Source: Kiritimatiellia bacterium (GTDB lineage: Bacteria; Verrucomicrobiota; Kiritimatiellia; JAAZAB01). From it: DNA of 64,000 bases. Each line of letters starts with the position of its first letter. Position 1 is the first letter of the stretch. Below the pieces are notes generated by a model. The model worked only from the letters and a program-made list of their open reading frames with translations, did no database searches and was not told the origin of the DNA. A program made the position numbers and the translations under genes. The DNA lies in the NCBI GenBank assembly GCA_040767085.1, contig JAXGPF010000005.1:128001-192000 (forward strand), in the 5' to 3' direction. Positions 4,450-60,621 of the stretch are shown piece by piece.

Positions 4450-4621
4450 AATGTTACACAGGGATATTTTGAAATTGGCCCATCTGATCATAAACGCCAT
4501 ACAGCCGCCGGCCCGCATTCCAATAAGTTAATCATCAAATGTTTATCAATCATCCACGCCGTATTTCCTGCAAACGACATCATGCTTTTGTAATAAAATA
4601 GCACTGCCGCCAAAAAAAGCA

Positions 4622-5533: not shown

Positions 5534-5618
5534 AAGATTCATGGCAACATCAAAACAGTGCGGGAGGGCCAAGCCATCGTATCTCAATACCACCCCGTCC
5601 TGACCGCCGAGCAACGCA

Positions 5619-6893
5619 ATGACCGCCACCGATTCTCAACCGCCTCCGTCCCGATGTTTTTTTAAAATTCCCGCCACCTTCCGGGCGCTCACCTTCCCAA
5701 ACTACCGTTACATGTGGCTGGGCCAGTTGGGACACTCAGCGGCCATCTGGATGGAACAGGTCGTGCGGCCCCTGCTCATGCTCGAATTGACCGGCGCGCC
5801 GATCCAGGTCGGACTGGTGGTGGCGGTGCGGATGGCGCCCCAGTTGCTTTTCGGGCTGCTGGCCGGGGCGGCGGCCGATCGTTATGACAAGCGCCGGATT
5901 CTGCTGGCCACGCAGTGGATCACCCTCTCCATGCACCTGGTCCTGGCCGTCCTGATCCTGGCCGGCAAGCTGGCCATCTGGCATGTTTTCGTCACCGCAT
6001 TTGTCGCCGGCGCCTCAATGGCCTTCAACCAGCCGGCCCGGCAATCCATGATCCCGCGCCTGGTGCCGGCCGACGCCCTGTTAAACGCCATCGCCCTGAA
6101 CACCATGGCCATTAACATCATGCGCGTCTTGGGCGCCAGCCTGGCGGGGATTTTGCTGGTCTTTCTGGACTATGGCCAGGTTTACCTGATGAACGCCATA
6201 ATCTTCATATATGTCATCTGGGCCACGGCCAGAATCACGCTTAAGGAAACGCCCAGGACCAACCGCCTGGCGCCGGCCGGCATGGCGCCCAACCTGCTGC
6301 ATGACCTGCTGGCGGGATTCCGCTACATGCTGGCTAATCCCACGGTCTTGCACCTGGTGGGACTGGCGCTTGTGATTTTCGTCATCGGACAACCCTACCA
6401 GCAGGTATTCGTGCCGCTGCTGGCCCTGGATGTCCTGAAAATCGGGCGGTCCGGCGCCGGCGGCCTGCTGGCCTGCGTGGGCGTGGGCGCCCTGATCGGC
6501 TCGCTGGCGATCGCCTCCCTCCAGAAACTGCCCCGCCGCGGCCTGATTTTAATGGCTGCCATCGTGGCCTACGGGATGGCGTTGCTGTTGCTGGCATACA
6601 GCCGGTCGGTCTGGCTTTCATCCGCGGCCCTCATCGCCGCCGGCATCCTGACCACCGCCTACAACTCGCTGAACGTCTCGCTGCTCGTGGAAAAATCCGC
6701 GGCGGATTATCACGGCCGGGTATTGAGCCTCTTGAGCCTGGACCGGGGCCTGGTATCGGTCGGCGCCGTGATAGCCGGCGTGCTGGCGCAATTTTTCGGA
6801 CCCCGGATCGGTTTGGGCATCGTCGCCCTGGCCTGCATCGCCATGACCCTGCTGATCTACTATCTTGCGCCGCCGCTCCGGAAAATCAAATAA
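5619..6893 (+). CDS. MFS transporter (EntS/H+ antiporter-like)
   Basis: About 12 hydrophobic segments; motif A (GAAADRYDKRRIL) and PARQSMIPRLV. Confidence 0.9.
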   Translation: MTATDSQPPPSRCFFKIPATFRALTFPNYRYMWLGQLGHSAAIWMEQVVRPLLMLELTGAPIQVGLVVAVRMAPQLLFGLLAGAAADRYDKRRILLATQWITLSMHLVLAVLILAGKLAIWHVFVTAFVAGASMAFNQPARQSMIPRLVPADALLNAIALNTMAINIMRVLGASLAGILLVFLDYGQVYLMNAIIFIYVIWATARITLKETPRTNRLAPAGMAPNLLHDLLAGFRYMLANPTVLHLVGLALVIFVIGQPYQQVFVPLLALDVLKIGRSGAGGLLACVGVGALIGSLAIASLQKLPRRGLILMAAIVAYGMALLLLAYSRSVWLSSAALIAAGILTTAYNSLNVSLLVEKSAADYHGRVLSLLSLDRGLVSVGAVIAGVLAQFFGPRIGLGIVALACIAMTLLIYYLAPPLRKIK

Positions 6894-7701
6894 TGCCGGC
6901 GCCGGTTGACAATTCGCCGGAATGCACGGTCATCCGCCCGCATCGCGCGCAATCGAAGGCCAGCGTGCCGTCGCGGTTGAGGTCGGCAATCCGCCCGATA
7001 TGTTCACCATCGGCGGCCTGCAGCCGGAAGGTTTGATCCAGCCCGGCAAGCAAGTCCCGCACCGCACTGTAAATCCCGGCGAAACCCTGCCGCCCGAAAA
7101 CCGCCAATACCTCCCGCAGTTCATCGAGGAAATGTTCCAGAACCGCCTGCGGTTCATATGCGCGGCCGACCGCCTGCGCCATGGAAGCCGCGGGCCGATC
7201 AATTCCCGCCAAATCCGCCGCGCCGCTGTTCAGATTCAGCCCTACCCCGGCCACCACCGCATCCGCCGGGGGGCGCCGGACAACTTCGCACAAAATCCCG
7301 CAGACTTTACATCCGCCCAACAACACGTCATTCGGCCACTTGAGGGATGGCGCCAGGTCCTGTTTTTGAAGCAGGCGGCACACCGCCAGGGCGGTTGCCT
7401 GCGGAAAATTAGGCAAACTCATCCGGCGCAAATCGGCGCGCATGTCCTGCAATGGCAGGAGGATGGAAAAACTCAAGTCCCGGCCCGGCGCGGCCAGCCA
7501 GGCGCGGCCGAAGCGGCCGCGTCCCGCCGTCTGCGCCCGGGCCCAGACGACGCTGTAATCCGGGAAGGCGGCGTGGTGCTGCATCAGAAAAGTGTTGGTG
7601 GATTCCAGTGTTTCGTAAATATATACGCGAAATGGACCGCGCTGGAAGTCCGGCGCGCGCGGTCCGGCGGCAGGCGAATCGTCTGGTATCCCATTTGTCA
7701 T
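6886..7701 (-). CDS. birA: Biotin--[acetyl-CoA carboxylase] ligase (no N-terminal HTH)
   Basis: STN, QTAGRGRFGRAW, LKWPNDV, KVCGILCE and GVGLNL motifs. Start approximate. Confidence 0.93.
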   Translation of the reverse strand: MTNGIPDDSPAAGPRAPDFQRGPFRVYIYETLESTNTFLMQHHAAFPDYSVVWARAQTAGRGRFGRAWLAAPGRDLSFSILLPLQDMRADLRRMSLPNFPQATALAVCRLLQKQDLAPSLKWPNDVLLGGCKVCGILCEVVRRPPADAVVAGVGLNLNSGAADLAGIDRPAASMAQAVGRAYEPQAVLEHFLDELREVLAVFGRQGFAGIYSAVRDLLAGLDQTFRLQAADGEHIGRIADLNRDGTLAFDCARCGRMTVHSGELSTGAGII

Positions 7702-7819
7702 CCACTGGCAAAATAACAGCTTTGCCGCGCGGCGCAAGCGGGAAATGCGATAGAGCTTGCGCCGCATATTGCTGTTCAGCTAGACTTTGTGTTTTTACGA
7801 CGCTCAGTCCGGTTCAAAC

Positions 7820-9184
7820 ATGATCTTCAAACCTAAACCCGGCCATGCCAACTTGACGGAAGTCGGCATTCTGACCGGCATCCGCCGCCTGGCGATGCCC
7901 ATGCTGATCGGCGCCCTGCTGCAAAATCTCCAAAGCCTGATAGACCTGTTCTGGGTCGGGCGGCTGGGCCACACGGCCATTGCCGGGGTGGCGCTCGGGG
8001 GCGCGGTAATCATGCTGCTGTTTCCGGGCCTGATGGGCCTGTCCACCGGCACCGTGGCGATGGTGGCGCGGGCGACAGGCGCCCGCCAGCCGGAAGCCGC
8101 CGGCACGGCGGCGGCGCAGTCGTTGATCATGGCCGGCATCCTGGGCGTGCTGGTGGGCGTCGGGGGATGGTGGCCGGCTGACGCGCTGCTGCGCCTGCTG
8201 GGCGCCGGCCCGGACGTCCTGGCGCCGGGCGGCATTTATTTAAAAATATCACTCCTGGGCAGCGTCACCGTCTTCATTTTATTCATCGGCAACGCCGCGC
8301 TCCAGGGCGCCGGCGACACCCTGACCCCCATGTATATCATGGCCGCGAGCAATGTGCTGAACATCGTCCTGGATCCGCTATTCATCTTCGGCCTCGGCCC
8401 GCTCCCGCCGCTGGGCGTGGCCGGAGCGGCCATCGCCACGATCATTTCCCAGGCCCTGGCGGCGGTCATGCTGCTGCTGGTGCTGTTGAACGGCCATGGC
8501 CCGCTCCATCTCCGACGCCGTTATTGGAAGCTGCGTCCGGACCTGGCCTGGCGGATTGTCCGGATCGGCATCCCGGGCTCGGGTCAGATGTTGAGCCGCA
8601 GCTTGATGGGAGCGGTGATTATGCGGATCGTCGCCCGCTGCGGCACCACCGCGGTGGCCGCCTATGGCACCGGCCTGCGGTTTCACATGATTATCCTGAT
8701 GCCAGCCTTCGCCTTGGGCGCCGCGGCCGCTACGCTGACCGGCCAGTACCTGGGCGCCGGCCGGCCGGAGCGGGCGCGCCGGGCAGCCTGGGCCGCCACG
8801 GCCATTGACATGGTTTTCATGCTCCTGGCCGCCGTACTCATGATCCTCTTCGCTCCTGCCTTGATCCGCCTGTTCAATGACCATCCCGACGTCGTTGCCA
8901 TCGGCGCGGAATATCTGCGGGTAGTATCGCCATTTTATGTTTTCGCGGCGCTGGGCATCGTGCTCAGCCGCGCGCTCCAGGGCGCCGGCGACACCCTGAT
9001 GCCCATGGTGATCACCATCCTGACGCTCTGGGGCTTGCAGGTGCCCGCGGCTGTCTGGCTCGCGCGCACCTGGCAGCCGCCCACCCAGGGCATCTGGATC
9101 GCCATGGCCGCCACGTTTGTGCTGCAGGGATTGTTGACGGCCGCCTGGTTCGAAACCGGCCGGTGGAAGAAAACCCGGGTATAA
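7820..9184 (+). CDS. MATE-family efflux transporter
   Basis: Two internally repeated halves (LQGAGDTLTPM / LQGAGDTLMPM); NIVLDPLFIFG and GVAGAAIAT motifs. Confidence 0.93.
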   Translation: MIFKPKPGHANLTEVGILTGIRRLAMPMLIGALLQNLQSLIDLFWVGRLGHTAIAGVALGGAVIMLLFPGLMGLSTGTVAMVARATGARQPEAAGTAAAQSLIMAGILGVLVGVGGWWPADALLRLLGAGPDVLAPGGIYLKISLLGSVTVFILFIGNAALQGAGDTLTPMYIMAASNVLNIVLDPLFIFGLGPLPPLGVAGAAIATIISQALAAVMLLLVLLNGHGPLHLRRRYWKLRPDLAWRIVRIGIPGSGQMLSRSLMGAVIMRIVARCGTTAVAAYGTGLRFHMIILMPAFALGAAAATLTGQYLGAGRPERARRAAWAATAIDMVFMLLAAVLMILFAPALIRLFNDHPDVVAIGAEYLRVVSPFYVFAALGIVLSRALQGAGDTLMPMVITILTLWGLQVPAAVWLARTWQPPTQGIWIAMAATFVLQGLLTAAWFETGRWKKTRV

Positions 9185-9190
9185 TTGCCG

Positions 9191-10324
9191 CTAAAAAACG
9201 ATCAGCAGGACGGCTAACGCCAACATGGCCGCGGCCATCAGCAACTTCGCCCGCACTACGTTTTGCCGGCCCCAGTCCGCGAGCCGGCCGCCGGACGCCT
9301 GCCAGCGGGCCGCCAGCGCAAAAACCAGCGCGGGCGGCAAGACGAACATCAGGTTGTACAGCAGCAGCAAGCCCCATACCCGCGCGCCGGCCGGCTGGCG
9401 GCTGAGGTAAAACAATACCGGCCCGTAAATCTGGCCGGTGCAGGGCGCCTCCAGCAACGTCACCAGCGCGCCCGCGGCAAACAGGCCGAGCCCCGTCCGC
9501 GCATCGGCCGCCATCCCCCAGCGCGCCAGGCGGCGCGCGCGCTCGCGCAGGCGGACCGGCAATTGCAGCCGCAATAACTCCGGCCGACCAGTGGTTTGAA
9601 ATACCCAGGCATCGCGCAGCGATAACGCGGCCAGCAGGACCAGGGCAGCCGCCCAGCCCCAGCGCAAGGATTCCCCCAGCCAGCGCCAGGCCGCCAACCT
9701 GGTGAATATGCGCAGGATGCCCAAGCCCAGCAGGAGATACGCCGCAAATACCCCCGCGCAGAAACAAAATCCGCTGAACCACCAGGCCGCTGAACGCCGC
9801 CCGCGCAATGCCAGCAGGCTGGCAAGAAAAATTATGGTCGTGAAGGCGCAGGGATTGATGCCATCCGCCAGCCCCGCCGCCAGCACGGCTCCCGCGCCCA
9901 TGCCGCGCGCGAAGCGCAGGGCGGCATCCTCGCGGCCGGCCGGCAGCGCCGGCGGCGCGGCCGCATCCGCCGCCAAACCGTCCAATTCCGCCAGGCAGGC
10001 CAGCAGCCGGCTTTCGATTGCCTGCCGCCCGCCCAGATAAACACGCTGATTCAAAACCGCCGCGACCGGGTGGGTATCGGTTACGCCCAACACCTGCTGC
10101 CATTCCAGCAACCGCCGCAACCCGGCGTCTTCCCGCAAGTCATATTCCCGCACCGCGACCTCCGGAAACGCCAGGCGCGCATCAGCCAGCGTGACATGCC
10201 GCACCGCCTGGCAATCCGGGCAATCCCCGTCGTAAAAAAATTCCAGCGATGCCGGGCCGGCGGCCGCCAGGCCGGCCGCCGCCGCCCAGAACAAAATTGA
10301 TATTAGCGGTATAAATATTTTCAT
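9191..10324 (-). CDS. Thioredoxin-like (CxxC) domain fused to CcdA/DsbD-type transmembrane domain
   Basis: Signal peptide, FFYDGDCPDC, then GLADGINPCAF, LLEAPCTGQIY and LLLYNLMFVLP, typical of cytochrome c biogenesis CcdA-like membrane domains. Confidence 0.8.
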   Translation of the reverse strand: MKIFIPLISILFWAAAAGLAAAGPASLEFFYDGDCPDCQAVRHVTLADARLAFPEVAVREYDLREDAGLRRLLEWQQVLGVTDTHPVAAVLNQRVYLGGRQAIESRLLACLAELDGLAADAAAPPALPAGREDAALRFARGMGAGAVLAAGLADGINPCAFTTIIFLASLLALRGRRSAAWWFSGFCFCAGVFAAYLLLGLGILRIFTRLAAWRWLGESLRWGWAAALVLLAALSLRDAWVFQTTGRPELLRLQLPVRLRERARRLARWGMAADARTGLGLFAAGALVTLLEAPCTGQIYGPVLFYLSRQPAGARVWGLLLLYNLMFVLPPALVFALAARWQASGGRLADWGRQNVVRAKLLMAAAMLALAVLLIVF

Positions 10325-10403
10325 TGCGCCGCGGTTGACTGGTGGTAGAATTTTTTCAAGCAACGCTGGTGGAGTTTATCAGAATATTCCCGGAAATCAA
10401 ATC

Positions 10404-11708
10404 ATGCGAAAAAATACCGCTGTATCCCTGCTGCTGGCCCTCCTGTTTTGCATTGCCGCGCGCGCCCGCGCCGCGGATTACGACTACTACCGGGTTAACC
10501 TGGATTGGGGCGCGCAGGCCGCCCGGCCTTTGACCGGCGATTTCGACGGCGACGGCAAAGCCGACCCGGCCTGCTATGTTGAAAGCACCGGCCTCTGGGC
10601 CGTCTTGATGTCCGGCAGCCACTACGCCGAAATCCGCGCCACACTGGGCGGCCCCGGCGCGCTCCCGGCGCCCGCCGATTACGACGGCGACGGCAAAACC
10701 GACCCGGCGGTTTTCCGCCAGGCCGACGGGCGGCTGACGGTCATGCTGTCCGGCAGCAATTACGCCATGGCCGGCCTGGACTTCCCCGCCGGCAGTTTCT
10801 GCGCGGCCGCGGATTATGACGGCGACGGCAAAGCCGACCCGGCGAGTTACAATCCGGCCGCCGGCCAGTGGCAATTTTTGATGCGCCAGGCGCGGGAAGT
10901 CGCCGACACCAACATTCTCGCCGGCATGTATTCCAACGCCATGGTCAATGCGTCTCAACCCACGGCGGCCAAAATCTGCACGGACTTGACCGCCATCACC
11001 ACCCCGGCGGACCATCCCTGGCAAATCTGGCGCACCAACGAGCTGGGCGGGCTTGAAATCAAGATGGTGTCCTTCATGCGTTATGCCACCGCCACCAATT
11101 ATTACCATCCCGGCCAGATCACCGAGTTGAAATACGCGTTTGCCTGGGTCACCGTGGCGCCGGAACTGAAAAATTTCTGCCGCAACTATACCGGCACAAA
11201 CCTTAACCTGCGCCTGCGCCAACTGATCGGCCTGCCGGCCGTCAGCGCCAACGACACCATTGTGGAATTCTGGGTTGACCCGCAATACCTGCTGCGGCCC
11301 AGCAAGGACCCGGAAATCGTAGATTATTCCGCCCAGTTGGAATTCCACACCAACACGCTCTTCTTAACCATGCAGACCGACACCAACTACGTCGGCTGGT
11401 TCAACCAGAATCTGATTGACGCCAATTACGGCATGACCAACGGCGTCTGGAACTCGCTCCCCTGGACGCAACTGGGCTACACCTACGACTGGGCCGGCAT
11501 GGACGCCGACATTGTGGGGTTGAGCGAATTCATCATCCCCGGCAGCCTGCTCTGGGAACGCTATGGCACAGTGGTGGGGGTGGAAGTTGACTCCGTCACC
11601 CCCGCCGTGGATTATGCCAATACCCCCGACCGCCGCGCGCGCGATCCGCGCGCACCCGACCCGCGATCGCTGCCGCGCCTGGTGGCGCCACCCGGCGACG
11701 GGCGGTGA
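10404..11708 (+). CDS. Secreted FG-GAP/VCBS-repeat protein with uncharacterised C-terminal domain
   Basis: Signal peptide and three D[FY]DGDGKxDPA repeats. The C-terminal domain contains LRLRQLIGLP and PWTQLGYTYDW...GLSEF. Confidence 0.8.
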   Translation: MRKNTAVSLLLALLFCIAARARAADYDYYRVNLDWGAQAARPLTGDFDGDGKADPACYVESTGLWAVLMSGSHYAEIRATLGGPGALPAPADYDGDGKTDPAVFRQADGRLTVMLSGSNYAMAGLDFPAGSFCAAADYDGDGKADPASYNPAAGQWQFLMRQAREVADTNILAGMYSNAMVNASQPTAAKICTDLTAITTPADHPWQIWRTNELGGLEIKMVSFMRYATATNYYHPGQITELKYAFAWVTVAPELKNFCRNYTGTNLNLRLRQLIGLPAVSANDTIVEFWVDPQYLLRPSKDPEIVDYSAQLEFHTNTLFLTMQTDTNYVGWFNQNLIDANYGMTNGVWNSLPWTQLGYTYDWAGMDADIVGLSEFIIPGSLLWERYGTVVGVEVDSVTPAVDYANTPDRRARDPRAPDPRSLPRLVAPPGDGR

Positions 11709-11731
11709 GCGCCAATCCCGCCACGACGCCG

Positions 11732-11875
11732 TTAAGCACCATACCCTCGCCACTGGCCGAGCATAACGCGCCACTCGCTGCCGTCGGTCTTGCGGACCGC
11801 CGGGCCAGCCAAGCCATCGCCGCCGTAATCGCCAGGCACGGTGTTCCAACAGCGCGGCATCCCATTCAATTCCAT
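11732..11875 (-). pseudogene. Degenerate single FG-GAP repeat fragment
   Basis: Manual translation gives ...NTVPGDYGGDGLAGPAVRKTDGSEWRVMLG*, matching the PADYDGDGKTDPAV...LTVMLSG repeats of the adjacent gene with conserved Asp residues changed to Gly. Confidence 0.55.
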
Positions 11876-11902
11876 TACATCTATGCTCTTTTCTGCGCCT
11901 GT

Positions 11903-12081
11903 GCTTGCCCACCGTAGCTTGACGAAGGCGGGGGTCTACTGCACTCCTTCCACTCATCCGGCTCTGTGGTGAAAAATTCCGTATCTTCTTTGCGGACGAA
12001 AATCTGCGTAATCTGCGGATAAAAAAGGTTACGTGGTAAATTATCCGAATCTTCTTTGTGACTTTGCGTCGTTGTGAGAGA
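11903..12081. repeat. Patchwork of short dispersed intergenic repeats
   Basis: 11903-11928 is the reverse complement of a CTTCG..AAGCTA....GGGCAAGC motif also at 42946-42971. 12000-12026 is identical to part of the repeat at 35746-35814. CTCTGTGGTGAA and CTTTGTGACTTTGCGTCGTTGTGAGA motifs are also present. Confidence 0.65.
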
Positions 12082-12122
12082 ATCAAGCGGTTTTTTATAG
12101 GATGCTGCTGAAATGAACAACA

Positions 12123-12196
12123 TGAAACGTATTTGAAACGCAATGAAACGTATTTGAAACGTAAATGAAACGAATATGAAACGTATTTGGAACGAA
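12123..12196 (+). repeat. Tandem array of 7 TGAAACG cores with 10-11 bp period
   Basis: Cores start at 12123, 12134, 12144, 12155, 12166, 12177 and 12188 (the last is TGGAACG). Confidence 0.92.
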
Positions 12197-12475
12197 TGCG
12201 GATCAAGCGCCGGATGTTAGCGTGTCCGGCAGGGCATATTCATGCCGCCTGATTCCGATCAGCCTATAACTTGGTTCCCGGCGGTTTCTGCTGGCGTTGC
12301 GGGACACCGCCTGTTATAGTCAAAACTGCGTGTTTACCACTGATTGTATCGCCGGCCTGCCGCGCGGCAAAGGCGGACGTGCCGCGTCTTGGCCTCGCCA
12401 TGCGAGGTGAAGACGGAAGCAGGTCGAGCAAGAGCAGGACGATAGCTGCTCCAGGTATCGCATAGGACGGACGTA

Positions 12476-12586
12476 ATGCCCCAGATATTCGACAACATCG
12501 AAAAGCAACTCCTGAAAGCCCTTGACGAAGCGCTGGGGCTCTCGGATAGCCGATCTACAAGCCAAGATCACTATGCTTGTGCGTGA
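12476..12586 (+). pseudogene. 5' remnant of a PLD-domain/SNF2-type helicase gene of restriction-modification loci
   Basis: MPQIFDNIEKQLLKALDEALGLSD matches the N-terminus I recognise for this family (MPxIFDNI...ADFCVGYFNLRGW). Similarity ends at ~12548 and the frame stops at 12584-12586. Confidence 0.6.
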
Positions 12587-12776
12587 ACAGAAACAGACCG
12601 GCCGGACAGAGACCCAGAGTTTCAAAACACAGCTCTCCAAGCCCATCATCGACGAGATTGACAAGGTTCTCGCCAAGCACTATGGCTTCACTGACGAGGA
12701 ACTGGATTTCCTCATCAACTACGACATCAAATACCGCATGGGCCGCAACGGCGGGGAGGAGGATGCGGAAGGATGA
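12549..12776 (+). pseudogene. 3' remnant of a type IIG/Eco57I-like adenine methyltransferase (restriction-modification) gene
   Basis: SKPIIDEIDKVLAKHYGFTDEELDFLINYDIKYRMG is the characteristic C-terminus of this family. No catalytic motifs or credible start are present. Confidence 0.75.
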
Positions 12777-13897
12777 AGGCGGAAGCGCATGCCTACGATC
12801 CGGCGCTTCATCACCGGCATTCGATCCGGATGCGCGGACATGATTATGCCGGTGGCGGGATGTATTTTATTACGCTGTGCGTCGCCGCCTACCGCCCGTT
12901 GTTTGGCACAGTAGTGCATGGACGCATGGTTTTAAACGAGGCCGGGCGCAAGGCAGCGGCGTGCTGGCGTGATATTCCGGCGCATTTCCCCGGGGCCACC
13001 CTGGACGAATGGATCGTTATGCCGGATCATGTGCACGGGATTTTGCGGGTGGGCACGACATGTCGTGCTCATCTGATTCCGGCATTCGGCCGCCCGATTT
13101 CCGGCGCTCTGGGGACAATCATCGGCGCCTATAAAGGCGCCGCCACGCGCGCCATTCGAGGCACGGCATGCTGTGCCCCTTACCCGACACGCACGGGTTT
13201 GGCATGCCAAACCCCGCCGATTTGGCAACGCAATTATTACGATATTATCATCCAGGATTCGCGCGCATTGAACAACATCCGCCGCTATATCCGCGACAAT
13301 CCTGCCCATTGGGATGCCCTGCGTTACGGTGCGCCGCGCTTCTTTGCGGGCAATCGGGCGCTGCTGGATTTGCCCCTGACCGCCTTTCTGGCATCCCGCC
13401 GTACGGGTTTGGCATGCCAAACCCCTGCCCAATCCCCTGCGACATGCCATACGGGTTTGGCATGCCAAACCCCTGCCCAATCCCCTGCCGCGGCATGTGG
13501 CCCTGCGACATGGCCCGAACGCCCCGCCTGTGTGATTGGCGGATTTCTCTCCCCCATGGAACGGGCCGTTTTCGATGCCTGCCTTGCCGACTACATACCC
13601 ATGGTGTGGATTCTGGCGCGGGGGTTGGGGCTTGGCATGCCAAGCCCCTGCGGACGGATGCGGCGGGCTCTTGATGCCGGTCGGCTTCTGATCATGACGC
13701 CCTTCGATGACACCGTGCGCGGCTTCAGCGCCGCCCGTGCCGGCTGGTGCAATGAATACGCCCTGCATCTGGCCTCCAGCGCAGTCGTCGGCTATCTTGC
13801 GCCTGATGGTATGCTGGCATGTTTACTGGCGGACTTACGCCGTGACATCTCGATTAGCTATCTTGAAAGTCAACCCGCCAGTGAGGCTCACCCATGA
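12773..13897 (+). CDS. REP-associated tyrosine transposase (RAYT, Y1/HUH) fused to a C-terminal DprA/SLOG-like domain
   Basis: RAYT motifs: RHSIRMRGHDY..GMYFITLC, VMPDHVHGI (HUH) and WQRNYYD..I...RRYIRDNP..W (catalytic Tyr). The C-terminal half (GNRALL, AFLASR, VIGGFLSPME, VWILARG, GRLLIMTPF) aligns by eye with the next gene. ATGA overlap with the methyltransferase remnant stop. Confidence 0.88.
   Translation: MKAEAHAYDPALHHRHSIRMRGHDYAGGGMYFITLCVAAYRPLFGTVVHGRMVLNEAGRKAAACWRDIPAHFPGATLDEWIVMPDHVHGILRVGTTCRAHLIPAFGRPISGALGTIIGAYKGAATRAIRGTACCAPYPTRTGLACQTPPIWQRNYYDIIIQDSRALNNIRRYIRDNPAHWDALRYGAPRFFAGNRALLDLPLTAFLASRRTGLACQTPAQSPATCHTGLACQTPAQSPAAACGPATWPERPACVIGGFLSPMERAVFDACLADYIPMVWILARGLGLGMPSPCGRMRRALDAGRLLIMTPFDDTVRGFSAARAGWCNEYALHLASSAVVGYLAPDGMLACLLADLRRDISISYLESQPASEAHP
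13053..13648. repeat. Six CATG-centred REP-like palindromes inside the RAYT-SLOG coding sequence
   Basis: GCACGACATGTCGTGC (13053-13068); GGCACGGCATGCTGTGCC (13160-13177); GGGTTTGGCATGCCAAACCC x3 (13195-13214, 13405-13424, 13453-13472); GGGGCTTGGCATGCCAAGCCCC (13627-13648). Confidence 0.9.
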
Positions 13898-14025
13898 TCG
13901 AGAACAACCCCGGGAACATGGGAGACCACGGACGCCGGAAAGACTCGACTCAAGGAGAACAAGCGAGAATGCGAGACGCCTCTGGGAAGGGGGAAGCCCC
14001 CATCCAAGCGCAAGAGGGGGAAGTC

Positions 14026-14595
14026 ATGACTTCAATCGAGAAGACGAGACGGCCCAGTATTCAAACACTCGGCGATACCGCCATCCTTGACCGCCGCATG
14101 ATCGCGCTGTTTTGTTCGTCCAAGTGCCCCGGAAAACTGATCCTCGACACCTATGACCTCGCCAAGCAGTTCCGGGAGCAAGGCGTCACTGTCATCAGCG
14201 GCTTCCATTCACCGATGGAAGAGGAATGCTTGCGCATTCTGCTCCGCTCCCCCCATCCGGTCGTCTGGTGTCTTGCCCGTGGTATGTTCAAGCGCATCCC
14301 CTCGAAGCCGGTGGACTGCCGCGCCGCTATCGCCGATGGTCGGCTCCTGATTGTCTCCCCGTTCAAGGAGAATGTCTGCCGCGTCACCGCCAAAACCGCC
14401 ATGGCCCGCAATCGTATCGTCGCTGATCTGGCCGAGGCCGTGGTCATCGCCCACGCCGCCCCCGGCAGCAAGATCGAGGCCCTAACTCTCGAACTCCTCG
14501 TGGAGGAAAAACCGATTTACACTTTCGACCATCCCGCAAATGCGGCCATTCTCGACCGCGGCGCAAGAGACGTTGGCCGTCTTGCGTGGCATTGA
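14026..14595 (+). CDS. Stand-alone DprA/SMF-like SLOG-domain protein
   Basis: ALFCSSKCPG, VISGFHSPMEEE, GRLLIVSPF and AMARNRIVADLAEAVVIAHAAPGSK. A GAGGGGG RBS precedes ATG 14026; an in-frame upstream ATG at 13894 is also possible. Confidence 0.82.
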   Translation: MTSIEKTRRPSIQTLGDTAILDRRMIALFCSSKCPGKLILDTYDLAKQFREQGVTVISGFHSPMEEECLRILLRSPHPVVWCLARGMFKRIPSKPVDCRAAIADGRLLIVSPFKENVCRVTAKTAMARNRIVADLAEAVVIAHAAPGSKIEALTLELLVEEKPIYTFDHPANAAILDRGARDVGRLAWH

Positions 14596-15216
14596 GGCAT
14601 TGGGATTCTTGCGAATTGACAATTGCGGCTGATGCCCGGCCTGATGCTCCTGGTGGAGCGTGGCCAGGTAACTGCTGGTGAAAACCACCCAGACCAGCAG
14701 CAGCGGCAGCAATACCGCGCGGCCGGCCCGCAACCATCCCAGCCGCATCAAGGCCAACGCCAGCCAGATTCCCAGGAATGCCCCGGCGGCAATTTGCAGA
14801 CGCCGGTACACGGACAGTTTGAAATGCCAGGCGCAGACAAACCGATACCAGGGCCATTCGGCGTTTTCCCGGCCATCCCGCCGCGCCAGGGCGATTGACA
14901 GGTTGCGTGCGATATCCGGCTGCCCGCCCAGGTAACTTTCAGCGCGCTGGAGGGCGGCCGCGGCCGCCGCATATTCGCCGGCCTGCAGCCACGCCGTCCC
15001 CAGGTTGTAAAACAGTGGGCCATTGCGCACACCGGCATCCGCCAGTTGCTGATAGGTCAGGGCGGCGCGCTGCCAGTCATTCGAAGTGGCGGCCGCCGCG
15101 GCCTGGGCATTGGCCTGCTGCCAGATGAATTCCAGCTCCGGCAAAGCCGCGCGCGCCGCGCCGGCGGCCAGGAGCAACAGCAGCAGGCCGATTTTACGAT
15201 ATTGCCATGTTTTCAT
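14482..15216 (-). CDS. BatE-like TPR membrane protein
   Basis: Signal peptide, TPR (LFYNLGTAWLQAGEY...DIARNL) and two TM segments. Last gene of the bat operon; its 3' end overlaps the convergent SLOG gene. Confidence 0.75.
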   Translation of the reverse strand: MKTWQYRKIGLLLLLLAAGAARAALPELEFIWQQANAQAAAAATSNDWQRAALTYQQLADAGVRNGPLFYNLGTAWLQAGEYAAAAAALQRAESYLGGQPDIARNLSIALARRDGRENAEWPWYRFVCAWHFKLSVYRRLQIAAGAFLGIWLALALMRLGWLRAGRAVLLPLLLVWVVFTSSYLATLHQEHQAGHQPQLSIRKNPNASMPRKTANVSCAAVENGRICGMVESVNRFFLHEEFES

Positions 15217-15323
15217 AAATTCTCCACGGCGGGCTTTGGCGGGCATAGCCAAACAGCCGCTGAACCGCGTCGAAAACTTGCCAAGCTTCGCTTGATGCAG
15301 ATTGACACGACACAAATCCATAA

Positions 15324-17270
15324 TCAGCTTACCCGTCCGGCTAAAATCCGCTCCAATTCGCGGCAATCCCGGCGTAAATCAGCATCCGCGATCCCGCCGG
15401 ACGCGGCGGCTGCGCCGCCGTATGCCGCGTCAAAATGGCGCTGATAGATGGAGGCCAGCATCTTGACGTCAGGCGCCGGCAACTTGATCCGCGGCAGCAT
15501 TTCCCCTAATTCTTTCGGCGTCAAAGCGGCGGTGTTGACCTCAAAACGCGCGGCCAGCACGGCGCGGATCATGTCGCAAATCGCGCCGGGCTCCCCAGCC
15601 GCGGCGCCGCTGCGTTGCAGGCGGCGCAGGCGCCGGCGGGCCGCCGTCAATACCCGGCGCCGCCGGCGGACGGATGCTGTCCGCCGGCGCCAGGCAAAAT
15701 ATTGCTGCACGGCCAACACCAAAATGTAACCAGCCGGCCCCGCCAGGACAACGATCCAGAGCCGCGGCCGGCCGAACAAATTTACCGACCCGGCGCCGGA
15801 CGCCGTCAGCCAGGGCGGCGCCGGTGTCAGTTCCGTATCCGGCACTTCCGGTTGGATCCCATTCACCGCCGTTGTAGCGCTGATGATCTGCTCCGCGGTC
15901 ACTTCCGCGCCCGGCCGCACATCCAGCGGCACCGGCGCGGTCCGGCGTACCGCGTACGCGCGGGCGGCGGTGTCATAGTAAGCCAATTCCAGGGGGGGCA
16001 CTTCCAACATGCCGGCGCGGCGGGGGCGGATGGTGTACACGAAGCGGCGCTGTGTTGGCGAATCGGCAAAAGTCTGGACGGTCTGGTCGTAAACCGAAAA
16101 ATTTTCCAGAAGATTGGTCTGCGTTTCCAGCCTGGGCGGCAGCATGCGGTCAAACCGCAAATGCCCGGTGACCGTCAAGGTCAGCCGCACCGGATCGCCG
16201 GCATTGCAGGTCAGGCAATCCAGGGATGCCGCGGCTTGCAGGTTCGTGCCCAGGGTCCCGGTGAAGGAAGCCGGCCGGCCGGCTTCCGGTGGCGGCACCA
16301 CCCGCACCGTAACCGCGCGGCCTACCGCGAAAATATCGCGCCCTGAGGCATTCCCGGCATCATCCACAGACACGGGAATGCTGCCTTTGAAAGTCGCCGG
16401 CCCGAACACATAATCGCCCTCCTCCTCGGGGGTATATTGCAATTCCAACTGGTACTCGAAATACGGCTGACCGTCCACCTCCACCATGCGCCGGGGCAGA
16501 ACGAAGCGGGCCCGGCGCGGCTGGCCGAAGGCTTCGAAAAATCCGCGGAAACTGAAAGGATCGTCCGCCAGGGTATATTCATTGATGTTTACGCCGGGCT
16601 GGTTGTCATGCCGGGCCAGGAGCCGCCGCAGCACATCCTGCATGGATGGCCCGCGCAAGCCGGCAATGGGATTATTATCCAGGAAGGGGGCCTGCAGCCG
16701 CGGGGGATTATCCGGAAACAGCGGGTCAACTTCGGCGAAACGGCCGGTGAGCGCGCGGATGCGCAGGCGCAGCCGCACCGTAAACGGCTCATCCGCCAGC
16801 ACCGTCTCGCGCGAAGCTTCCACGGCGAGCTGCACCTCGTCCTGCGGGGTGATATCCGTCACCGTCACTTCCGGGCCCGCCGCTTCCAGGCGCCGGCCGT
16901 CCGCCTCCAGCGCCACCGGCCCGGCCCGGAACACTCCCGCGCGGCGCGGGGTGACTTCGTAACTGACCACCCGGCCGGAAAAGCCCTCGCGCACCATGCG
17001 GCCGTTGATAATAGTAAAGGAGAAATTGCTGTACTCGCGGCTGTCCAGCAGCCGCACTGCGGCATCGGCAATGCCGGAGACATCCGGCTCCACCGGCTGG
17101 TCGGCGCCGGAAATTTTCACCTGCAGGATGAAAGACTCCCCGATGTAAATCCGCTGGCGGTTGGCCGTCGCTTCCAGGGCGACTTCCGCCCGGACCGCGG
17201 CGGCGCCCAGCAGCGCCGCCAACATGCCCACCGTCAATTTCCGGATGATATGCATGCGGCATTTCACCAA
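15324..17270 (-). CDS. batD: BatD-family protein
   Basis: Signal peptide, repeated Ig-like BatD domains (IGESFILQVKI; GRPASFTGTLG; YYDTAARAY) and a C-terminal TM; operon context. Start 17270 or 17255. Confidence 0.85.
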   Translation of the reverse strand: MVKCRMHIIRKLTVGMLAALLGAAAVRAEVALEATANRQRIYIGESFILQVKISGADQPVEPDVSGIADAAVRLLDSREYSNFSFTIINGRMVREGFSGRVVSYEVTPRRAGVFRAGPVALEADGRRLEAAGPEVTVTDITPQDEVQLAVEASRETVLADEPFTVRLRLRIRALTGRFAEVDPLFPDNPPRLQAPFLDNNPIAGLRGPSMQDVLRRLLARHDNQPGVNINEYTLADDPFSFRGFFEAFGQPRRARFVLPRRMVEVDGQPYFEYQLELQYTPEEEGDYVFGPATFKGSIPVSVDDAGNASGRDIFAVGRAVTVRVVPPPEAGRPASFTGTLGTNLQAAASLDCLTCNAGDPVRLTLTVTGHLRFDRMLPPRLETQTNLLENFSVYDQTVQTFADSPTQRRFVYTIRPRRAGMLEVPPLELAYYDTAARAYAVRRTAPVPLDVRPGAEVTAEQIISATTAVNGIQPEVPDTELTPAPPWLTASGAGSVNLFGRPRLWIVVLAGPAGYILVLAVQQYFAWRRRTASVRRRRRVLTAARRRLRRLQRSGAAAGEPGAICDMIRAVLAARFEVNTAALTPKELGEMLPRIKLPAPDVKMLASIYQRHFDAAYGGAAAASGGIADADLRRDCRELERILAGRVS

Positions 17271-20074
17271 TCGCGATCCGTCGGCGACAGCGGCGCGTAC
17301 TGGCGCTGTTGTCGCTGGCGGTATTCTTTTTCACGTTCAGCCGCCCTTTGCAGCAGCCGGAGCGCCTGTTCCGGAGTCATCTCTTGCTGGTCGTCTTCCT
17401 CAGCCGTCTCCGCGGCCGCTTGCTCGTTCGTCTCGGCCGACTGCGGCTGTTCCGGCTGTTCCTGTTCCGGTTGCTCCTGTTTTTCCTCCGGCTTCTGCTC
17501 TTCTTCCGGCTTCTGCTCTTCTTCCTGACCATCAGATTGCGGCTGGTCCTGCTTTTCCTGATCCTGTTGCTGCTGGTCCTGTTTCTGCTGCTGGTCCTGT
17601 TGCTGCTTATCCTGTTTCTGCTGGTCCTGTTTCTGCTGGTCCTGGCCCTGCTGCTGGTCCTGCTGCGGCGGGGGCGGCGGGGGCGGCGGCAGAAGTTTTT
17701 GGATGGCTTGGAGCAGATCGCGGCTGTTTTGCTGGGCGCTGCGCGCCGCCGGCCAATCGGGTTTGTTCAAGGCTGATAGCGCCTTCTGCTGGCGGTCAAC
17801 GGCTTCCCGGGCGAGTTTGACGATATTGGCGCGCTTTTCGGCGCTGATGCCCTGCTCCGGGTCGACCGGCTGGCCATCCGGCGCGGGCGGCGGCGGCGCG
17901 CCGGTTTCCGGCACGGCATTCGTAAACCGATCCAGAAACAATTCCGTCAGGACCTGGGTCTCCGCCTGATCGTCGCGGATGGCATCCGCCTGGGACGACG
18001 GATCCTCTTCGGAAAGAGCTTGCGCCAGGGCGTTAGTCTGGCGCAGCAGTCCTTCCTGCAAGAGAGCGGGATACGGCGCCAAGGCTTTCCAGAAGTTGTA
18101 CACCCCGCCGGCGGCCGTGCCGGCCGCTTCCGGCGCGCGCGGATCCAGATCGCGCAGCCGCGTCCGCGTTTGCAGCATGGCATCCTGCAAGGCCTGAAAA
18201 TACAAATCCAATTGCGGCGGCGCATTGGTGGCGCTGCCGGTTTCCAGCGCCAGCCGCAACGGTCCCAGCAGATCGGCGGCGTCGCGCTGGCGCTCCGCCA
18301 AGGCCTCCAGGCGTTCAATGCGGGCTGGCGGCGCCGCGGTCAAGGCCGCCACGCTTTCCGCGGCAATGGCGCGCTGGCGGCGCAGGATTTCATCCGTCAG
18401 TTCGGCCGGGGGCTTTTCGCCGTATTGCTTAAACACTTTTTGCAGGCGGGCCTGCTCGCGCTCCCGGGGCAACACCTCGGCCACGGCCTCCAGGGCAGCG
18501 CTCGCATCGCCGCCATTGCCGTTGACGTGGGCAGCCTGCTGGAATGCCTGGGCGGCGTTTTCCAGCCTGGCAATCCGGTCGGCCGGCTGGATATCCGGCG
18601 CGTTGGTGGCCGCGGCAGCGGCCGCGCCGGCGGCCGCCTGCCACCAGGCGCCGCCCTGGTTATACAACGCATCGGCATCCGCCGGTCCGGCCTGGCGGGC
18701 GGCCGTTGCGAACAGATCCGCTGCCTCCTGGTAAGCGCAGGCGCGATAGAGGGCGCAGGCGGCATTGTACAGCAAGGTATTGCGCAATTGCCGTTCCGCC
18801 GTATCGGAGCGCGGGGACGTCCCGGGCGCATCGCCGGCGGCCTGCCGCCAGGCCTCGGCCGCGGCCTGGTAATTGCCGGATTGATATAAGCGCCAGGCGC
18901 GCGCAGCTTCCGCGCGCCGATCGGGCGCCGTGACCGGCGCGGGCGGGGCGGATTCGGCGGCCGGCGGCGCCGGGGGATTGGTTTCCGCGCCGGCGGATAG
19001 CGCCGTCCCCGCCAGCAAGACCAGGAATGCCGCGGCTGGTCCGCCCCGGCGGCGTGTCCCTGCGGCGGACGGCGGCCTGGGCGCGGCCGGCCGGCCGCGG
19101 CTCAACCCCGCCGCCAGCAGGAAAGCCATGAGCGCCGGCGCCAGGAACCACTGGAATCGCTCCACCATGCCGCGCCGGGAAGTCTCTTCCAGGTCGCGGG
19201 CGGAAATCGCGCGCAGGTGATCGTGGTAAAGCGCGTCCAACCGGACGTTGGAAAGTCCCACCGGCACGTATGCCCCGCCGGTGGCTTCCGCGATGTTTTT
19301 CAAGGTGGCATGGTCGAGGCGGGTAGCCACCTGCCCGCCCTTATACAAGACCTGCCCGCCCGGCGCGCGGTCATCCGGAATGGGCGCGCCGGCGGCATCG
19401 CCCAAGCCCACCGTAAAAATGACGATGCCCGCCCGCGCCGCTTCCGCGGCGGATTCCGACGCCCGGCCGGCGAGGTCCTCGCCGTCGGAGATCAGGATAA
19501 TCGCCCGATGCGAGCCGGCTTCCTCGCCGAACGCTTCGGCCGCCTTGCGGATGGCATCGGCCAGATCCGTCTCGCCGGGCGGCGCGGAATCAACCGTCAT
19601 CTCGGCCAACGCCGTCTCCATGAAGCTGTAATCGGTGGTGAGCGGGCAGAGCAGCACCGCGCGCCCGCGGAAAGCCACCAACGCCACGCGGTCGCCCTGC
19701 AGGGCGCGCAGCAAATCCATGACATCGGCGCGCGCGCGTTCCAGCCGGCTGGGTTGAACATCGCGCGCCAGCATGGACCGGGAAACGTCCAGGGCAATCA
19801 CCAGGTCGCGGCCGCGCTGCAGTACGCGCTCATCGCGGTACCCCCAGCGCGGCGCGGCGGCGGCCAGCAGCGTCAGCAGCAACCCGGTCAGCACGGCCGC
19901 GAACTGCGCGCGGCGCCGCCAGCGCGCCGGCGCCGGCAGGATTTTTGCGCGCAAGGATGCGTCCACCAACCCGGCCAGCCGCCGGTCGCCGCGCCGGTGC
20001 AGCGCCCAGAGCAAGGCGGCGAACAACGGCGCACCCCACAGCAGAAACAAAACCCATGGTTCGCCAAAATGCAT
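17264..20074 (-). CDS. BatB/BatC-type fusion: vWA domain + TPR + Q/E-rich tail
   Basis: ALDVSRSMLARDVQPSRL, CPLTTDY and ILISDGED (vWA MIDAS); TPRs; QQDQQKQ low-complexity linker; terminal ...RDW. Confidence 0.88.
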   Translation of the reverse strand: MHFGEPWVLFLLWGAPLFAALLWALHRRGDRRLAGLVDASLRAKILPAPARWRRRAQFAAVLTGLLLTLLAAAAPRWGYRDERVLQRGRDLVIALDVSRSMLARDVQPSRLERARADVMDLLRALQGDRVALVAFRGRAVLLCPLTTDYSFMETALAEMTVDSAPPGETDLADAIRKAAEAFGEEAGSHRAIILISDGEDLAGRASESAAEAARAGIVIFTVGLGDAAGAPIPDDRAPGGQVLYKGGQVATRLDHATLKNIAEATGGAYVPVGLSNVRLDALYHDHLRAISARDLEETSRRGMVERFQWFLAPALMAFLLAAGLSRGRPAAPRPPSAAGTRRRGGPAAAFLVLLAGTALSAGAETNPPAPPAAESAPPAPVTAPDRRAEAARAWRLYQSGNYQAAAEAWRQAAGDAPGTSPRSDTAERQLRNTLLYNAACALYRACAYQEAADLFATAARQAGPADADALYNQGGAWWQAAAGAAAAAATNAPDIQPADRIARLENAAQAFQQAAHVNGNGGDASAALEAVAEVLPREREQARLQKVFKQYGEKPPAELTDEILRRQRAIAAESVAALTAAPPARIERLEALAERQRDAADLLGPLRLALETGSATNAPPQLDLYFQALQDAMLQTRTRLRDLDPRAPEAAGTAAGGVYNFWKALAPYPALLQEGLLRQTNALAQALSEEDPSSQADAIRDDQAETQVLTELFLDRFTNAVPETGAPPPPAPDGQPVDPEQGISAEKRANIVKLAREAVDRQQKALSALNKPDWPAARSAQQNSRDLLQAIQKLLPPPPPPPPQQDQQQGQDQQKQDQQKQDKQQQDQQQKQDQQQQDQEKQDQPQSDGQEEEQKPEEEQKPEEKQEQPEQEQPEQPQSAETNEQAAAETAEEDDQQEMTPEQALRLLQRAAEREKEYRQRQQRQYAPLSPTDRDW

Positions 20075-59991: not shown

Positions 59992-60621
59992 ATGTCGGCG
60001 ATCAGCGAATTGATCGTGCGCGAATATTTCGAAGCTCTGGGCTACCAGGTCTGCCAGCCATGCAAACACCTGGTGGGCGGCCGCGCCAAGCGCCCGGAGG
60101 AGGAAGCCGACCTGCTGATTCGGCATCCCGGCATCGCCGAAACGCGCATCCCCGCGCACGTTTTATGGACGGCGGAAGACCTGCGGAACATCGGCCAGGC
60201 GGTCGTCTGCATCTACGGCTGGCATGCCGAGCGCATCTACCCGGCCATGCTGGAAAACCTGCCGGAAATCGTGCGCTTTGCCGCGCCGGAAGCCCTGCGC
60301 GCCGCCCACCGCAACCTGGGATCCGACCAGGCGGCCACGATCTTGTGCCTGCCGAAGTTGCCGGCTTCCGCCGAATTGAAGCAGCGGCTGTTAAGCCAGT
60401 TGCGGGAAAAAGGCGTCCATGGCGTGCTGGGATTCCGGAACATCCTGCAGACGCTGATCCACCGGGTGGACCCCGCCAAGAATTACGATAAATCCGATGT
60501 CCTGCAAATGATCCGCATTTTGAAGATTTACGATTTGCTGCAATCATCGCAACTGGAATTATTCGCCCGCCGTCAACCGCGCCGGCGGCGCAAGGGAGCA
60601 GCGGACCTTGGACGCGCATGA
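59992..60621 (+). CDS. Hypothetical protein, possible restriction-endonuclease-like fold
   Basis: GAGG RBS; ELIVREYFEALGYQV...EADLLI pattern; overlaps the dprA start. Confidence 0.7.
   Translation: MSAISELIVREYFEALGYQVCQPCKHLVGGRAKRPEEEADLLIRHPGIAETRIPAHVLWTAEDLRNIGQAVVCIYGWHAERIYPAMLENLPEIVRFAAPEALRAAHRNLGSDQAATILCLPKLPASAELKQRLLSQLREKGVHGVLGFRNILQTLIHRVDPAKNYDKSDVLQMIRILKIYDLLQSSQLELFARRQPRRRRKGAADLGRA

Follow-up and report, generated by a model that had tools for sequence, protein, structure and literature searches.

What is the function of a gene that joins a transposase-type nuclease domain to a DprA-like domain, and does it belong with the restriction gene remnant on which it follows? 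The locus raising this question lies in a 64,000-nucleotide stretch of a Kiritimatiellia bacterium genome (GenBank assembly GCA_040767085.1, contig JAXGPF010000005.1, positions 128,001 to 192,000 of the forward strand). This whole stretch is referred to as the window, and positions without a handle are counted from its first letter; surveyed loci (L), genomes (G) and contigs of the source genome (C) carry handles where they need to be told apart. An initial annotation, made from the sequence alone, had described the gene as a HUH nuclease of the REP-associated tyrosine transposase (RAYT) type, REPs being repetitive extragenic palindromic elements, fused to a SLOG domain, and had proposed that it forms a two-component module with the stand-alone SLOG gene downstream, for defence or REP propagation. 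We found the fusion to be a conserved protein family that carries hairpins of its own and recurs as a guest in restriction-modification (RM) and defence operons. The gene and its domains are located as follows.

12773..13897, plus strand: RAYT-SLOG fusion gene, a 374-aa open frame
12773..13342, plus strand: Y1 HUH (RAYT, or TnpA_REP) domain, residues ~1-190 of the fusion
13028-13036 (HVH), 13223-13228 (WQ) and 13286-13288 (Tyr of YIRDNP), plus strand: catalytic-type motifs of the Y1 HUH domain
13340..13867, plus strand: DprA-like SLOG (Rossmann-like) domain, residues ~190-365 of the fusion

The frame is open and its motifs are intact, as had been stated. The HUH motif reads PDHVHG, with H86 at nt 13028-13030 and H88 at nt 13034-13036, and is followed by the conserved W motif IWQRNYYD (W151) and the Y motif YIRDNP, with Y172 at nt 13286-13288. 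In an alignment of 32 homologous sequences H86, H88, W151, Y172 and N176 were invariant; the 44 invariant columns were distributed across both domains, and the SR, GF-S-E and R-W-N positions of the SLOG domain were conserved. HuH, W and Y motifs are those given as defining TnpA_Y1 class 2 in Table 1 of Quentin et al. 2018 (PMC6006769). The reported likeness of the C-terminal half to the next gene also held up, as residues 247-372 align to the next open reading frame (ORF) without gaps over 126 aa at 34% identity (BLASTP, E 3e-16), including the motif pairs GFLSPME/GFHSPME, VWILARG/VWCLARG and GRLLIMTPF/GRLLIVSPF. An AlphaFold2 model built on the homologue alignment had a mean pLDDT (predicted local distance difference test) of 76. 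When the model was searched against the PDB with Foldseek, the N domain matched the ISDra2 (2xm3, 2.5e-7), IS608 (2vih, 2.9e-6) and RAYT (4er8, 4.2e-6) structures, while the C domain matched ShosA (8zva, 9.6e-7), DprA (3uqz, 4.8e-4, and 4ljl, 3.6e-3) and YpsA (2nx2). The alignment profile of the fusion, compared with the PDB, identified DprA (3uqz, 1.4e-4) and TnpA_REP (4er8, 0.011), the latter at the HuH and W/Y regions. The fused SLOG domain is without its first helix, and a REP-encoded linker stands in its place. By hidden Markov model, AlphaFold2, Foldseek and profile-PDB checks, the 374-aa protein is confirmed as a Y1 HUH (RAYT) domain followed by a DprA/ShosA-like SLOG domain.

Far from being unique to this genome or evolving neutrally, the fusion has many relatives. 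A search of 5.8 billion proteins at E<=1e-3 returned 670 matches, of which 120 were listed; 115 of these span 93% or more of the query (321-399 aa, 42-74% identity), which excludes a chance fusion. Source names among the matches listed are 'transposase' or 'RayT', from Kiritimatiellae and Lentisphaerae; overall, the family counts hundreds of metagenomic proteins, and every match with a name is from Kiritimatiellia, Lentisphaerae or Verrucomicrobiota. By scanning one genome per species, we kept 80 loci, comprising 33 full-length fusions, 46 loci with the N domain only (residues ~8-190) and one truncated at a contig end. The fusion loci are nearly all labelled as members of the Planctomycetes-Verrucomicrobia-Chlamydiae (PVC) group, i.e. 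Kiritimatiellia, Pontiellaceae, Tichowtungia, Lentisphaerae/Victivallales and Verrucomicrobiota, apart from one labelled Paceibacterota (L019) and four without a phylum label. The N-domain-only loci were found in Bacteroidota, Cyanobacteriota, Chloroflexota, Gemmatimonadota, the candidate phyla radiation and others. Among the sampled genomes of the phylum, 86 out of 401, in 57 out of 184 genera, had a match, often several per genome and with N-domain-only matches counted in. A quick tree by maximum likelihood, with 79 rows of N domains, placed the fusions in two main clades, of 19 rows (Shimodaira-Hasegawa-like approximate likelihood-ratio support, SH-aLRT, 99) and 12 rows (SH-aLRT 90), plus two stragglers.

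The source genome itself harbors two further copies. Copy 2 is intact (C24:327074-328237) and 61% identical to the window copy. Copy 3 (C15:15052-15754) is split over two frames, with the RAYT part at 15052-15429 and the SLOG part at 15458-15754. A 152-aa fragment of HsdM comes after it, and the copy probably represents a pseudogene within what is left of a type I RM locus. For the window copy, copy 2 and three homologues, the Nei-Gojobori dN/dS was 0.09-0.19 in both domains at a dS of 0.8-1.5. Members of the fusion family are conserved and subject to purifying selection, and an accidental or pseudogene fusion was rejected on these two grounds.

The gene is furthermore interrupted by palindromes, at the following positions (no strand is assigned to them).

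13053..13068: palindrome GCACGACATGTCGTGC with 8-bp arms; hot-spot 1, loop beta3:alphaC, which follows HUH
13195..13214: REP-like palindrome GGGTTTGGCATGCCAAACCC; hot-spot 2, alphaC:beta4, before WQ
13405-13424 and 13453-13472: two more copies of the GGGTTTGGCATGCCAAACCC palindrome, in a 48-nt tandem duplication; hot-spot 3, after SLOG beta1
13627..13648: variant palindrome GGGGCTTGGCATGCCAAGCCCC; hot-spot 4, within the SLOG domain, after ARGL

The REP-like elements are 20-nt GGG...CCC palindromes with a CATG centre that keep the reading frame, and the first two palindromes of the list fall, in frame, between H88 and Y172. The window holds four instances of the 18-nt core GGTTTGGCATGCCAAACC, three of them exact and one with two compensating changes, a count reached in 0 out of 100 shuffles. 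Over the whole genome (4.08 Mb) all four matches to this core lie inside the fusion gene and none elsewhere. The link to CATG-centred hairpins made in the initial annotation was sustained. The palindromes coincide with four hypervariable stretches of the alignment (post-HuH, pre-WQ, post-SLOG beta1 and post-ARGL), and the one at hot-spot 4 is an insertion relative to most homologues (alignment columns 481-500). Hot-spots 1-3 are disordered in the model (pLDDT<50 at residues 99-109, 138-145 and 213-236), while hot-spot 4 merely dips (block mean pLDDT 79).

This pattern is repeated in the other family members, each time with other sequences. Copy 2 has a palindrome family of its own, with GGGCGAAAAAACATTCGCCC present four times and GGGCGAAAAATCTTTCGCCC twice, and each of the three copies in the source genome carries a private family found nowhere else in that genome. 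Perfect palindromes with arms of at least 9 bp occur at 1.00/kb in 32 fusion genes of other genomes vs 0.10/kb in the rest of the loci, and at 3.56/kb in the window gene vs 0.21/kb outside it. The arms change jointly between homologues (e.g. TTTGG/CCAAA vs CATGG/CCATG), at a dS of about 1 elsewhere in the gene, and the palindromes encode odd repeated peptides such as GLACQTP, GMACHAP, GEKSFAP and VGAKNFSP. In six out of eight other genomes tested, the local palindrome is confined to the fusion gene or to within 40 nt of it; of the remaining two, one has a single extra site and the other (G004) about 23 dispersed sites. Flanking or dispersed REPs, as in a REPtron, were consequently not found in 7 out of the 9 genomes tested, the source genome included. 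Genome-wide REP propagation by the fusion gene, one of the two functions initially suggested, is rejected for the source genome, as no copy exists outside the gene. As single-stranded DNA (ssDNA), the palindromes fold into stems of 8-13 bp with a 4-nt loop at -7.4 to -10.8 kcal/mol; the folding z-scores (-1.65 to -3.58) are modest, and the case for hairpins rests on repetition, exclusivity and covariation. An Rfam scan of 11000-15000 at E<=0.1 gave zero matches.

Identical 20-mers are shared by genes with near-saturated synonymous sites, which speaks for selection or for homogenisation that is still under way. On the published view, the intragenic hairpins would be scars of insertion in cis into permissive loops; alternatively, they may serve as an operator or decoy. 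In one locus (L017:3660-3760 and 3950-4050) the hot-spots hold, besides whole hairpins, tandem arrays of half-palindromes with units like GCATGCCATGCCCC repeated three to four times, which could have arisen by slippage or through recurrent rounds of cleavage and joining at the hairpin centre. An unrelated second RAYT-like gene of the source genome (C4:124015-125109, minus strand; 364 aa, with THVH and YVQENP) contains four copies of a 22-nt palindrome, GGGCAGGCAGGAATGCCTGCCC, all intragenic and none elsewhere in the genome; private intragenic hairpins are therefore not confined to the fusion family. Another palindrome of this genome, TTCCTCCCCCGCGGGGGAGGAA, is dispersed in 28 copies over many contigs (e.g. 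C1:8980, C2:24918 and C4:82253) and is the only one with 9-bp arms above four copies.

Restriction genes are recurrent neighbors of the fusion, beginning with the one directly upstream in the window.

12522..12776, plus strand: 84-aa ORF, C-terminal tail left over from a type IIG RM gene (PADLOC REase_MTase_IIG, 3.8e-23)

This ORF covers positions 1031-1097 of the 1100 in the PADLOC profile, i.e. the last 67, and is 55% identical to the C-terminal end of an Eco57I-like gene on C28; the host RM gene in the window is decayed to its last 84 codons. Its TGA overlaps the ATG of the fusion (ATGA at 12773-12776). Between an FG-GAP gene and this tail, a stretch of low GC content (11700-12520, 0.53-0.57 vs 0.62-0.70 around it) presumably represents what remains of the degraded RM locus; PADLOC gave no match on the ORFs of this stretch (11367-12676) or on a short ORF at 12476. 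Downstream, 14482-20074 on the minus strand encodes a 294-aa ORF without Pfam match, a BatD gene and a VWA-domain gene, which we read as a Bat-type aerotolerance operon. Because these genes adjoin it, the RAYT-SLOG locus appears as a small insert between housekeeping genes.

Related configurations were found at other fusion loci. The same type IIG tail, degenerate and with an internal stop, directly precedes copy 2, and this tail is also found upstream of a RhuM-SLOG-fusion series (L018). In two metagenome loci an apparently intact, 5'-open type IIG gene (L128, 4.4e-43, and L129, 6.2e-93) ends 0-4 nt before the fusion. RhuM follows the fusion in L128, with an ATGA overlap, and in L130, and the fusion of L191 is flanked by RhuM-like genes and HsdR; altogether, four out of five metagenome fusion loci have an RM or defence context. 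Type I RM operons host the fusion between HsdS and HsdM (L037), between HsdR and HsdS/HsdM (L050) and beside HsdM (L028). It also comes after SIR2-HerA (L024), AbiEi/AbiEii (L019) and a Schlafen-type helicase (L020). In five loci (L023, L027, L029, L031 and L033, at positions of about 4000-10500 in each) it directly follows a 1200-1320-aa HTH-SNF2-NOV_C helicase (PADLOC HmaA, 1e-142 to 3e-153). In L029 the start of HmaB, a DUF1156 methylase, is seen two genes beyond the fusion, with a conserved ORF of about 450 aa without family match in between.

For a count of such contexts, PADLOC matches at E<=1e-10 within two ORFs on either side were considered, with ORFs delimited crudely, as the longest open frames, and with rRNA methylase, Lon, sigma-54 activators, primase, ABC/SMC ATPases and full-length DprA left out as unspecific. 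By this strict count, in which related loci are not independent, 13 out of 31 fusion loci had a defence context vs 4 out of 32 stand-alone RAYT loci. The association with RM and defence genes that a survey of homologues was expected to reveal thus emerged. The fusion is a guest gene of restriction and defence operons, namely after type IIG genes, in type I RM operons and in Hma. Its link to RM operons may predate the fusion itself, as three out of four positive control RAYTs, which are stand-alone and subclass-2.4-like, sit within type I RM operons between HsdM/HsdS and HsdR (L046:5044-11812, L058:4141-12602 and L074:68-4618); the hosts of these RM-embedded genes are Saprospiraceae, Waterburya and Oscillochloris.

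The second element of the proposed module is the gene that follows the fusion.

14026..14595, plus strand: stand-alone DprA-like SLOG gene, 189 aa, PsyrA/ShosA-like

Its longest ORF is 13894-14595 (plus strand, 233 aa), but the start is probably the ATG at 14026, since most of the 120 homologues listed out of 2583 matches are 183-230 aa long, with a minority at 278-364 aa, and the called product of the window gene has 189 aa. This start lies 128 nt past the fusion stop. Of the couplings originally described, the ATGA between the RM remnant and the fusion stands, while an ATGA linking the fusion to the SLOG gene is questionable. A promoter and terminator scan of 11600-14900 gave nothing exceeding shuffles, and no terminator-like site was seen between the two genes. 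The SLOG product matches Pfam DNA_processg_A above the cut-off (1.3e-12, 47.8 bits vs 29.6) and the PADLOC families PsyrA (6e-19, profile positions 122-290 of 398) and ShosA (5e-7). At 38-39 bits against a TIGR00732 cut-off of 191 it is not a canonical DprA, which is encoded separately at 60608-61729 (TIGR00732, 2.4e-77, above the cut-off), as had been noted. No cognate toxin, i.e. a RecQ-like PsyrT or the phosphoribosyltransferase (PRTase) ShosT, lies beside the window SLOG gene, whose neighbors are the fusion upstream and, on the other strand, the Pfam-less ORF and then BatD.

Members of this SLOG family were identified in 27 out of the 401 sampled phylum genomes. In the 28 loci from these genomes, SLOG is typically the second gene after a variable gene on the same strand, frequently with a start/stop overlap (L099-L126; L018:1152-2704). 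First genes include RhuM (3 loci), Bro-N (2), YhcG nuclease, TIR (then GmrSD), Schlafen/AlbA_2, DarT-DarG, DUF4276/AAA_21, Mrr_N and DUF488. In the source genome, a SLOG paralogue occupies an island (C28:116962-130072, L097) in the order Eco57I/MmeI-like methylase, PD-Lambda-3_B (Hypoth_Ymh), GajA-GajB, SLOG, GajA-GajB and GmrSD, i.e. between two Gabija pairs. The short DprA-like SLOG gene looks like a general companion or antitoxin module beyond ShosTA and PsyrTA. Its adjacency to the fusion is another matter. Across all loci examined, only three cases were found (the window, L018 and G301), the order in the latter two being RhuM, SLOG, fusion. No SLOG gene lies beside the fusion in the five metagenome loci, the contigs of which are short, and in the source genome copy 2 has no SLOG neighbor and the second SLOG copy no fusion neighbor. 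The fusion and the stand-alone SLOG gene share a niche but are not a fixed pair, and SLOG is not an obligate partner.

On the model of the two parent families, the following mechanism seems most likely. By analogy with E. coli TnpA_REP and IS608 TnpA, the HUH/Tyr centre would nick and rejoin ssDNA at hairpins. The DprA-like domain might hold the flanking ssDNA, dimerise or contact RecA, as DprA and ShosA do, and would thereby lend an otherwise minimal nuclease a grip on ssDNA substrates. The fusion would accordingly be a hairpin-directed ssDNA nuclease or strand-transferase with a built-in ssDNA-binding module, riding in restriction operons. Its role is the least certain part; we infer an RM-linked accessory that acts on ssDNA forms beyond the reach of double-stranded DNA (dsDNA) restriction, and not a propagator of genomic REPs. 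To this explanation as a whole, a subclass-2.4-type RAYT joined to SLOG as an ssDNA hairpin enzyme and RM-linked accessory, we assign a probability of roughly 0.5. The fused DprA-like domain is a handle absent from the classical RAYTs of E. coli and Pseudomonas and points to ssDNA or RecA-linked chemistry. With substrate-like hairpins within about 1 kb, binding, cleavage and autoregulation can be tested with few oligonucleotides, and the recurrent site in type I, type IIG and Hma operons suggests a concrete phenotype.

Several observations weigh against this explanation. The RAYT half stays under the curated family cut-offs, with 51.1 bits vs 80 for NCBIfam REP_Tyr_transpos (residues 24-178, 1.3e-13) and 19.7 bits vs 23 for Pfam Y1_Tnp (1e-3), because the inserts break the profile match, and the fused C domain has no Pfam match at E<=1, DNA_processg_A included. 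On the poorly resolved backbone of the N-domain tree the fusion label takes at least three changes, and a single origin is possible but not shown. The contrast in context shrinks to 15 out of 31 fusion loci vs 11 out of 32 stand-alone RAYT loci when all PADLOC matches are counted, and the five Hma loci represent a single clade and are not independent. About half of the fusion loci have housekeeping neighbors only (L015, L016, L017, L021, L022, L026, L032, L034, L040, L047 and L092). RM operons may be safe harbours for selfish genes, and some fusion members may still spread REPs, given the roughly 23 dispersed palindromes in G004. These last points would also suit a selfish or neutral passenger, in which a domesticated or decaying REP transposase lands in tolerated, addictive or recombination-prone RM operons, SLOG merely aids its own transposition chemistry, and the hairpins are self-insertion scars in permissive loops. 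The patchy, multi-copy distribution with a frameshifted third copy is in line with this, as are the adjoining RM genes, which are often remnants, the stand-alone relatives, which are classical REPtrons with flanking REPs, and the tandem half-REP arrays, which resemble by-products of cutting and joining or of slippage; Quentin et al. likewise regard such inserts as having 'little impact on protein activity' (PMC6006769). A passenger would, however, hardly keep both domains under such strong purifying selection over a dS of about 1, has nothing to propagate in the seven of nine genomes without REPs outside the gene, and fits poorly with the repeated embedding in intact operons with tight gene junctions. 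These three features give a modest edge to the host-accessory explanation, and we regard the passenger as possible but on balance rather unlikely.

A more ambitious version of the accessory role, in which RAYT-SLOG captures or attacks ssDNA invaders at hairpins with its own hairpins as operator or decoy, is speculative and in our view distinctly unlikely. If true, its targets could include conjugative transfer strands, transforming DNA and rolling-circle or ssDNA phage intermediates, which would fill a gap left by dsDNA restriction; with no cognate hairpins in the cell other than the intragenic ones, these would keep the enzyme in check, and the fusion would be a covalent form of the 'variable effector + SLOG' cassettes seen with RhuM, Bro-N, TIR, SLFN and DarTG. 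The initially proposed two-protein module, in which an HUH effector is held or directed through SLOG-SLOG contacts in the manner of PsyrTA or ShosTA, has become quite improbable. The two window genes are on the same strand, 128 nt apart or overlapping; the fusion holds the first position of a cassette in which SLOG is usually second, the stand-alone SLOG matches PsyrA (6e-19), and three adjacencies exceed the expectation for two random genes. The pair is nevertheless adjacent in only one or two out of 33 genome loci and two out of 27 SLOG-bearing genomes, in addition to the 0 out of 5 metagenome loci, the SLOG gene of L018 and G301 follows RhuM upstream of the fusion, and in the source genome copy 2 and the C28 SLOG are unpaired; ShosA, moreover, is described as neutralising ShosT without direct binding (PMC12961424). 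Very improbable, too, is a SLOG domain that senses a signalling nucleotide and so activates the nuclease, in the manner of Thoeris ThsA (SIR2-SLOG). The SLOG domains of ThsA are reported to bind cyclic ADP-ribose (cADPR) isomers, and one SLOG locus (L126) comes after a TIR gene, but by sequence and by fold the top matches are to DprA and ShosA, with ThsA and LOG not among them, and no signal-generating enzyme (TIR, cyclase) recurs beside the fusion. The conserved GF-SP-E motif does contain a Glu, which we take to resemble nucleotide-binding LOG-type motifs. That two genes were artefactually joined by frame-keeping REP insertions in this genome only, as the linker of REP copies and a 48-nt tandem duplication might suggest, is refuted by the same architecture in hundreds of proteins at 28-74% identity, some with short REP-free linkers, and by the purifying selection on both domains.

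In the literature we found no RAYT-DprA/SLOG fusion, in keeping with the initial annotation, and no RAYT-RM link, although a mention in Burroughs et al. 2015, which defined the SLOG superfamily, is conceivable. Among known systems, Thoeris ThsA resembles the fusion in layout only, i.e. an effector plus SLOG in a defence context; its SLOG is a cADPR sensor and not the nearest relative, its effector is an NADase, and a TIR partner is missing here. ShosA and PsyrA are closer. Like these, the stand-alone SLOG is a short DprA-like protein encoded in defence islands, second after a DNA-directed partner, and the fused SLOG has ShosA as its best Foldseek match. In contrast to ShosTA and PsyrTA, no PRTase or RecQ-like toxin is found alongside, the PsyrA match covers the profile core only, and the SLOG of the fusion is covalently joined to a nuclease domain. 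DprA-like defence proteins have been described to bind ssDNA, dimerise and bind RecA (PMC11961720; PMC12961424). With DprA itself (3UQZ, 4LJL), the fused domain shares the Rossmann-like fold, the SR after beta1, the G-x-x-S/G-x-x-E/D motif after beta2 and the R-x-x-x-x-N region, but lacks the SAM and C-terminal winged-helix domains as well as the first helix, and falls far under the TIGR00732 cut-off. In our survey, short DprA-like SLOG genes often held the second position in defence-island cassettes, and not only in ShosTA and PsyrTA.

On the RAYT side, the N domain has the Y1 HUH fold of E. coli TnpA_REP in complex with a REP hairpin (4ER8, Messing et al. 2012; template modelling score 0.61 on the target, root-mean-square deviation 4.6 over 164 columns), at only 16% identity; 4ER8 belongs to subclass 2.2 and has no C-terminal SLOG. 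The REPs of E. coli TnpA_REP are extragenic and number in the hundreds. Judged by its sequence, the RAYT half belongs to, or borders, TnpA_REP subclass 2.4 (Quentin, Siguier, Chandler and Fichant 2018, PMC6006769), which equals RAYT group 4 of Bertels et al. 2017. For this subclass, in-frame REP insertions within the gene are already published, and its REPs are described as having three G-C pairs at the stem foot or a GT[AG]G...C[TC]AC 'double foot' (PMC6006769). The fusion agrees in its HuH, WQ and YIxxNP motifs, its low copy number, the variable beta3-alphaC insert of in-frame REP copies and the three-G-C or GTAG...CTAC foot, and its closest stand-alone relatives are from Bacteroidota, Cyanobacteriota, Chloroflexota and Gemmatimonadota. 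As a control, 32 of the 46 stand-alone relatives were found to have an intragenic palindrome, mostly at nt 260-300, which is often the REP that flanks the same gene (e.g. in L043, L051, L052, L080 and L082). Being published for subclass 2.4 and present in these relatives, the intragenic hairpins are a known hallmark and not a discovery, a point that the initial annotation, which did not recognise them as in-frame REP insertions (PMC6006769), had missed; its observation is confirmed and its interpretation borne out in part, i.e. for architecture, conservation, RM context and hairpins. Differences from subclass 2.4 are a D instead of N ahead of HuH (PDHVH), the restriction to PVC bacteria, the lack of flanking or dispersed REPs in seven out of nine genomes tested, and REP inserts also pre-WQ, post-SLOG beta1 and within the SLOG domain. 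For 2.4, PMC6006769 reports no tail domain, and it makes no mention of 'DprA', while the fusion ends in a DprA-like domain of about 180 aa. New features are thus the C-terminal DprA-like domain itself, further sites of insertion, among them those in SLOG, and, for most carriers, the absence of REPs outside the gene.

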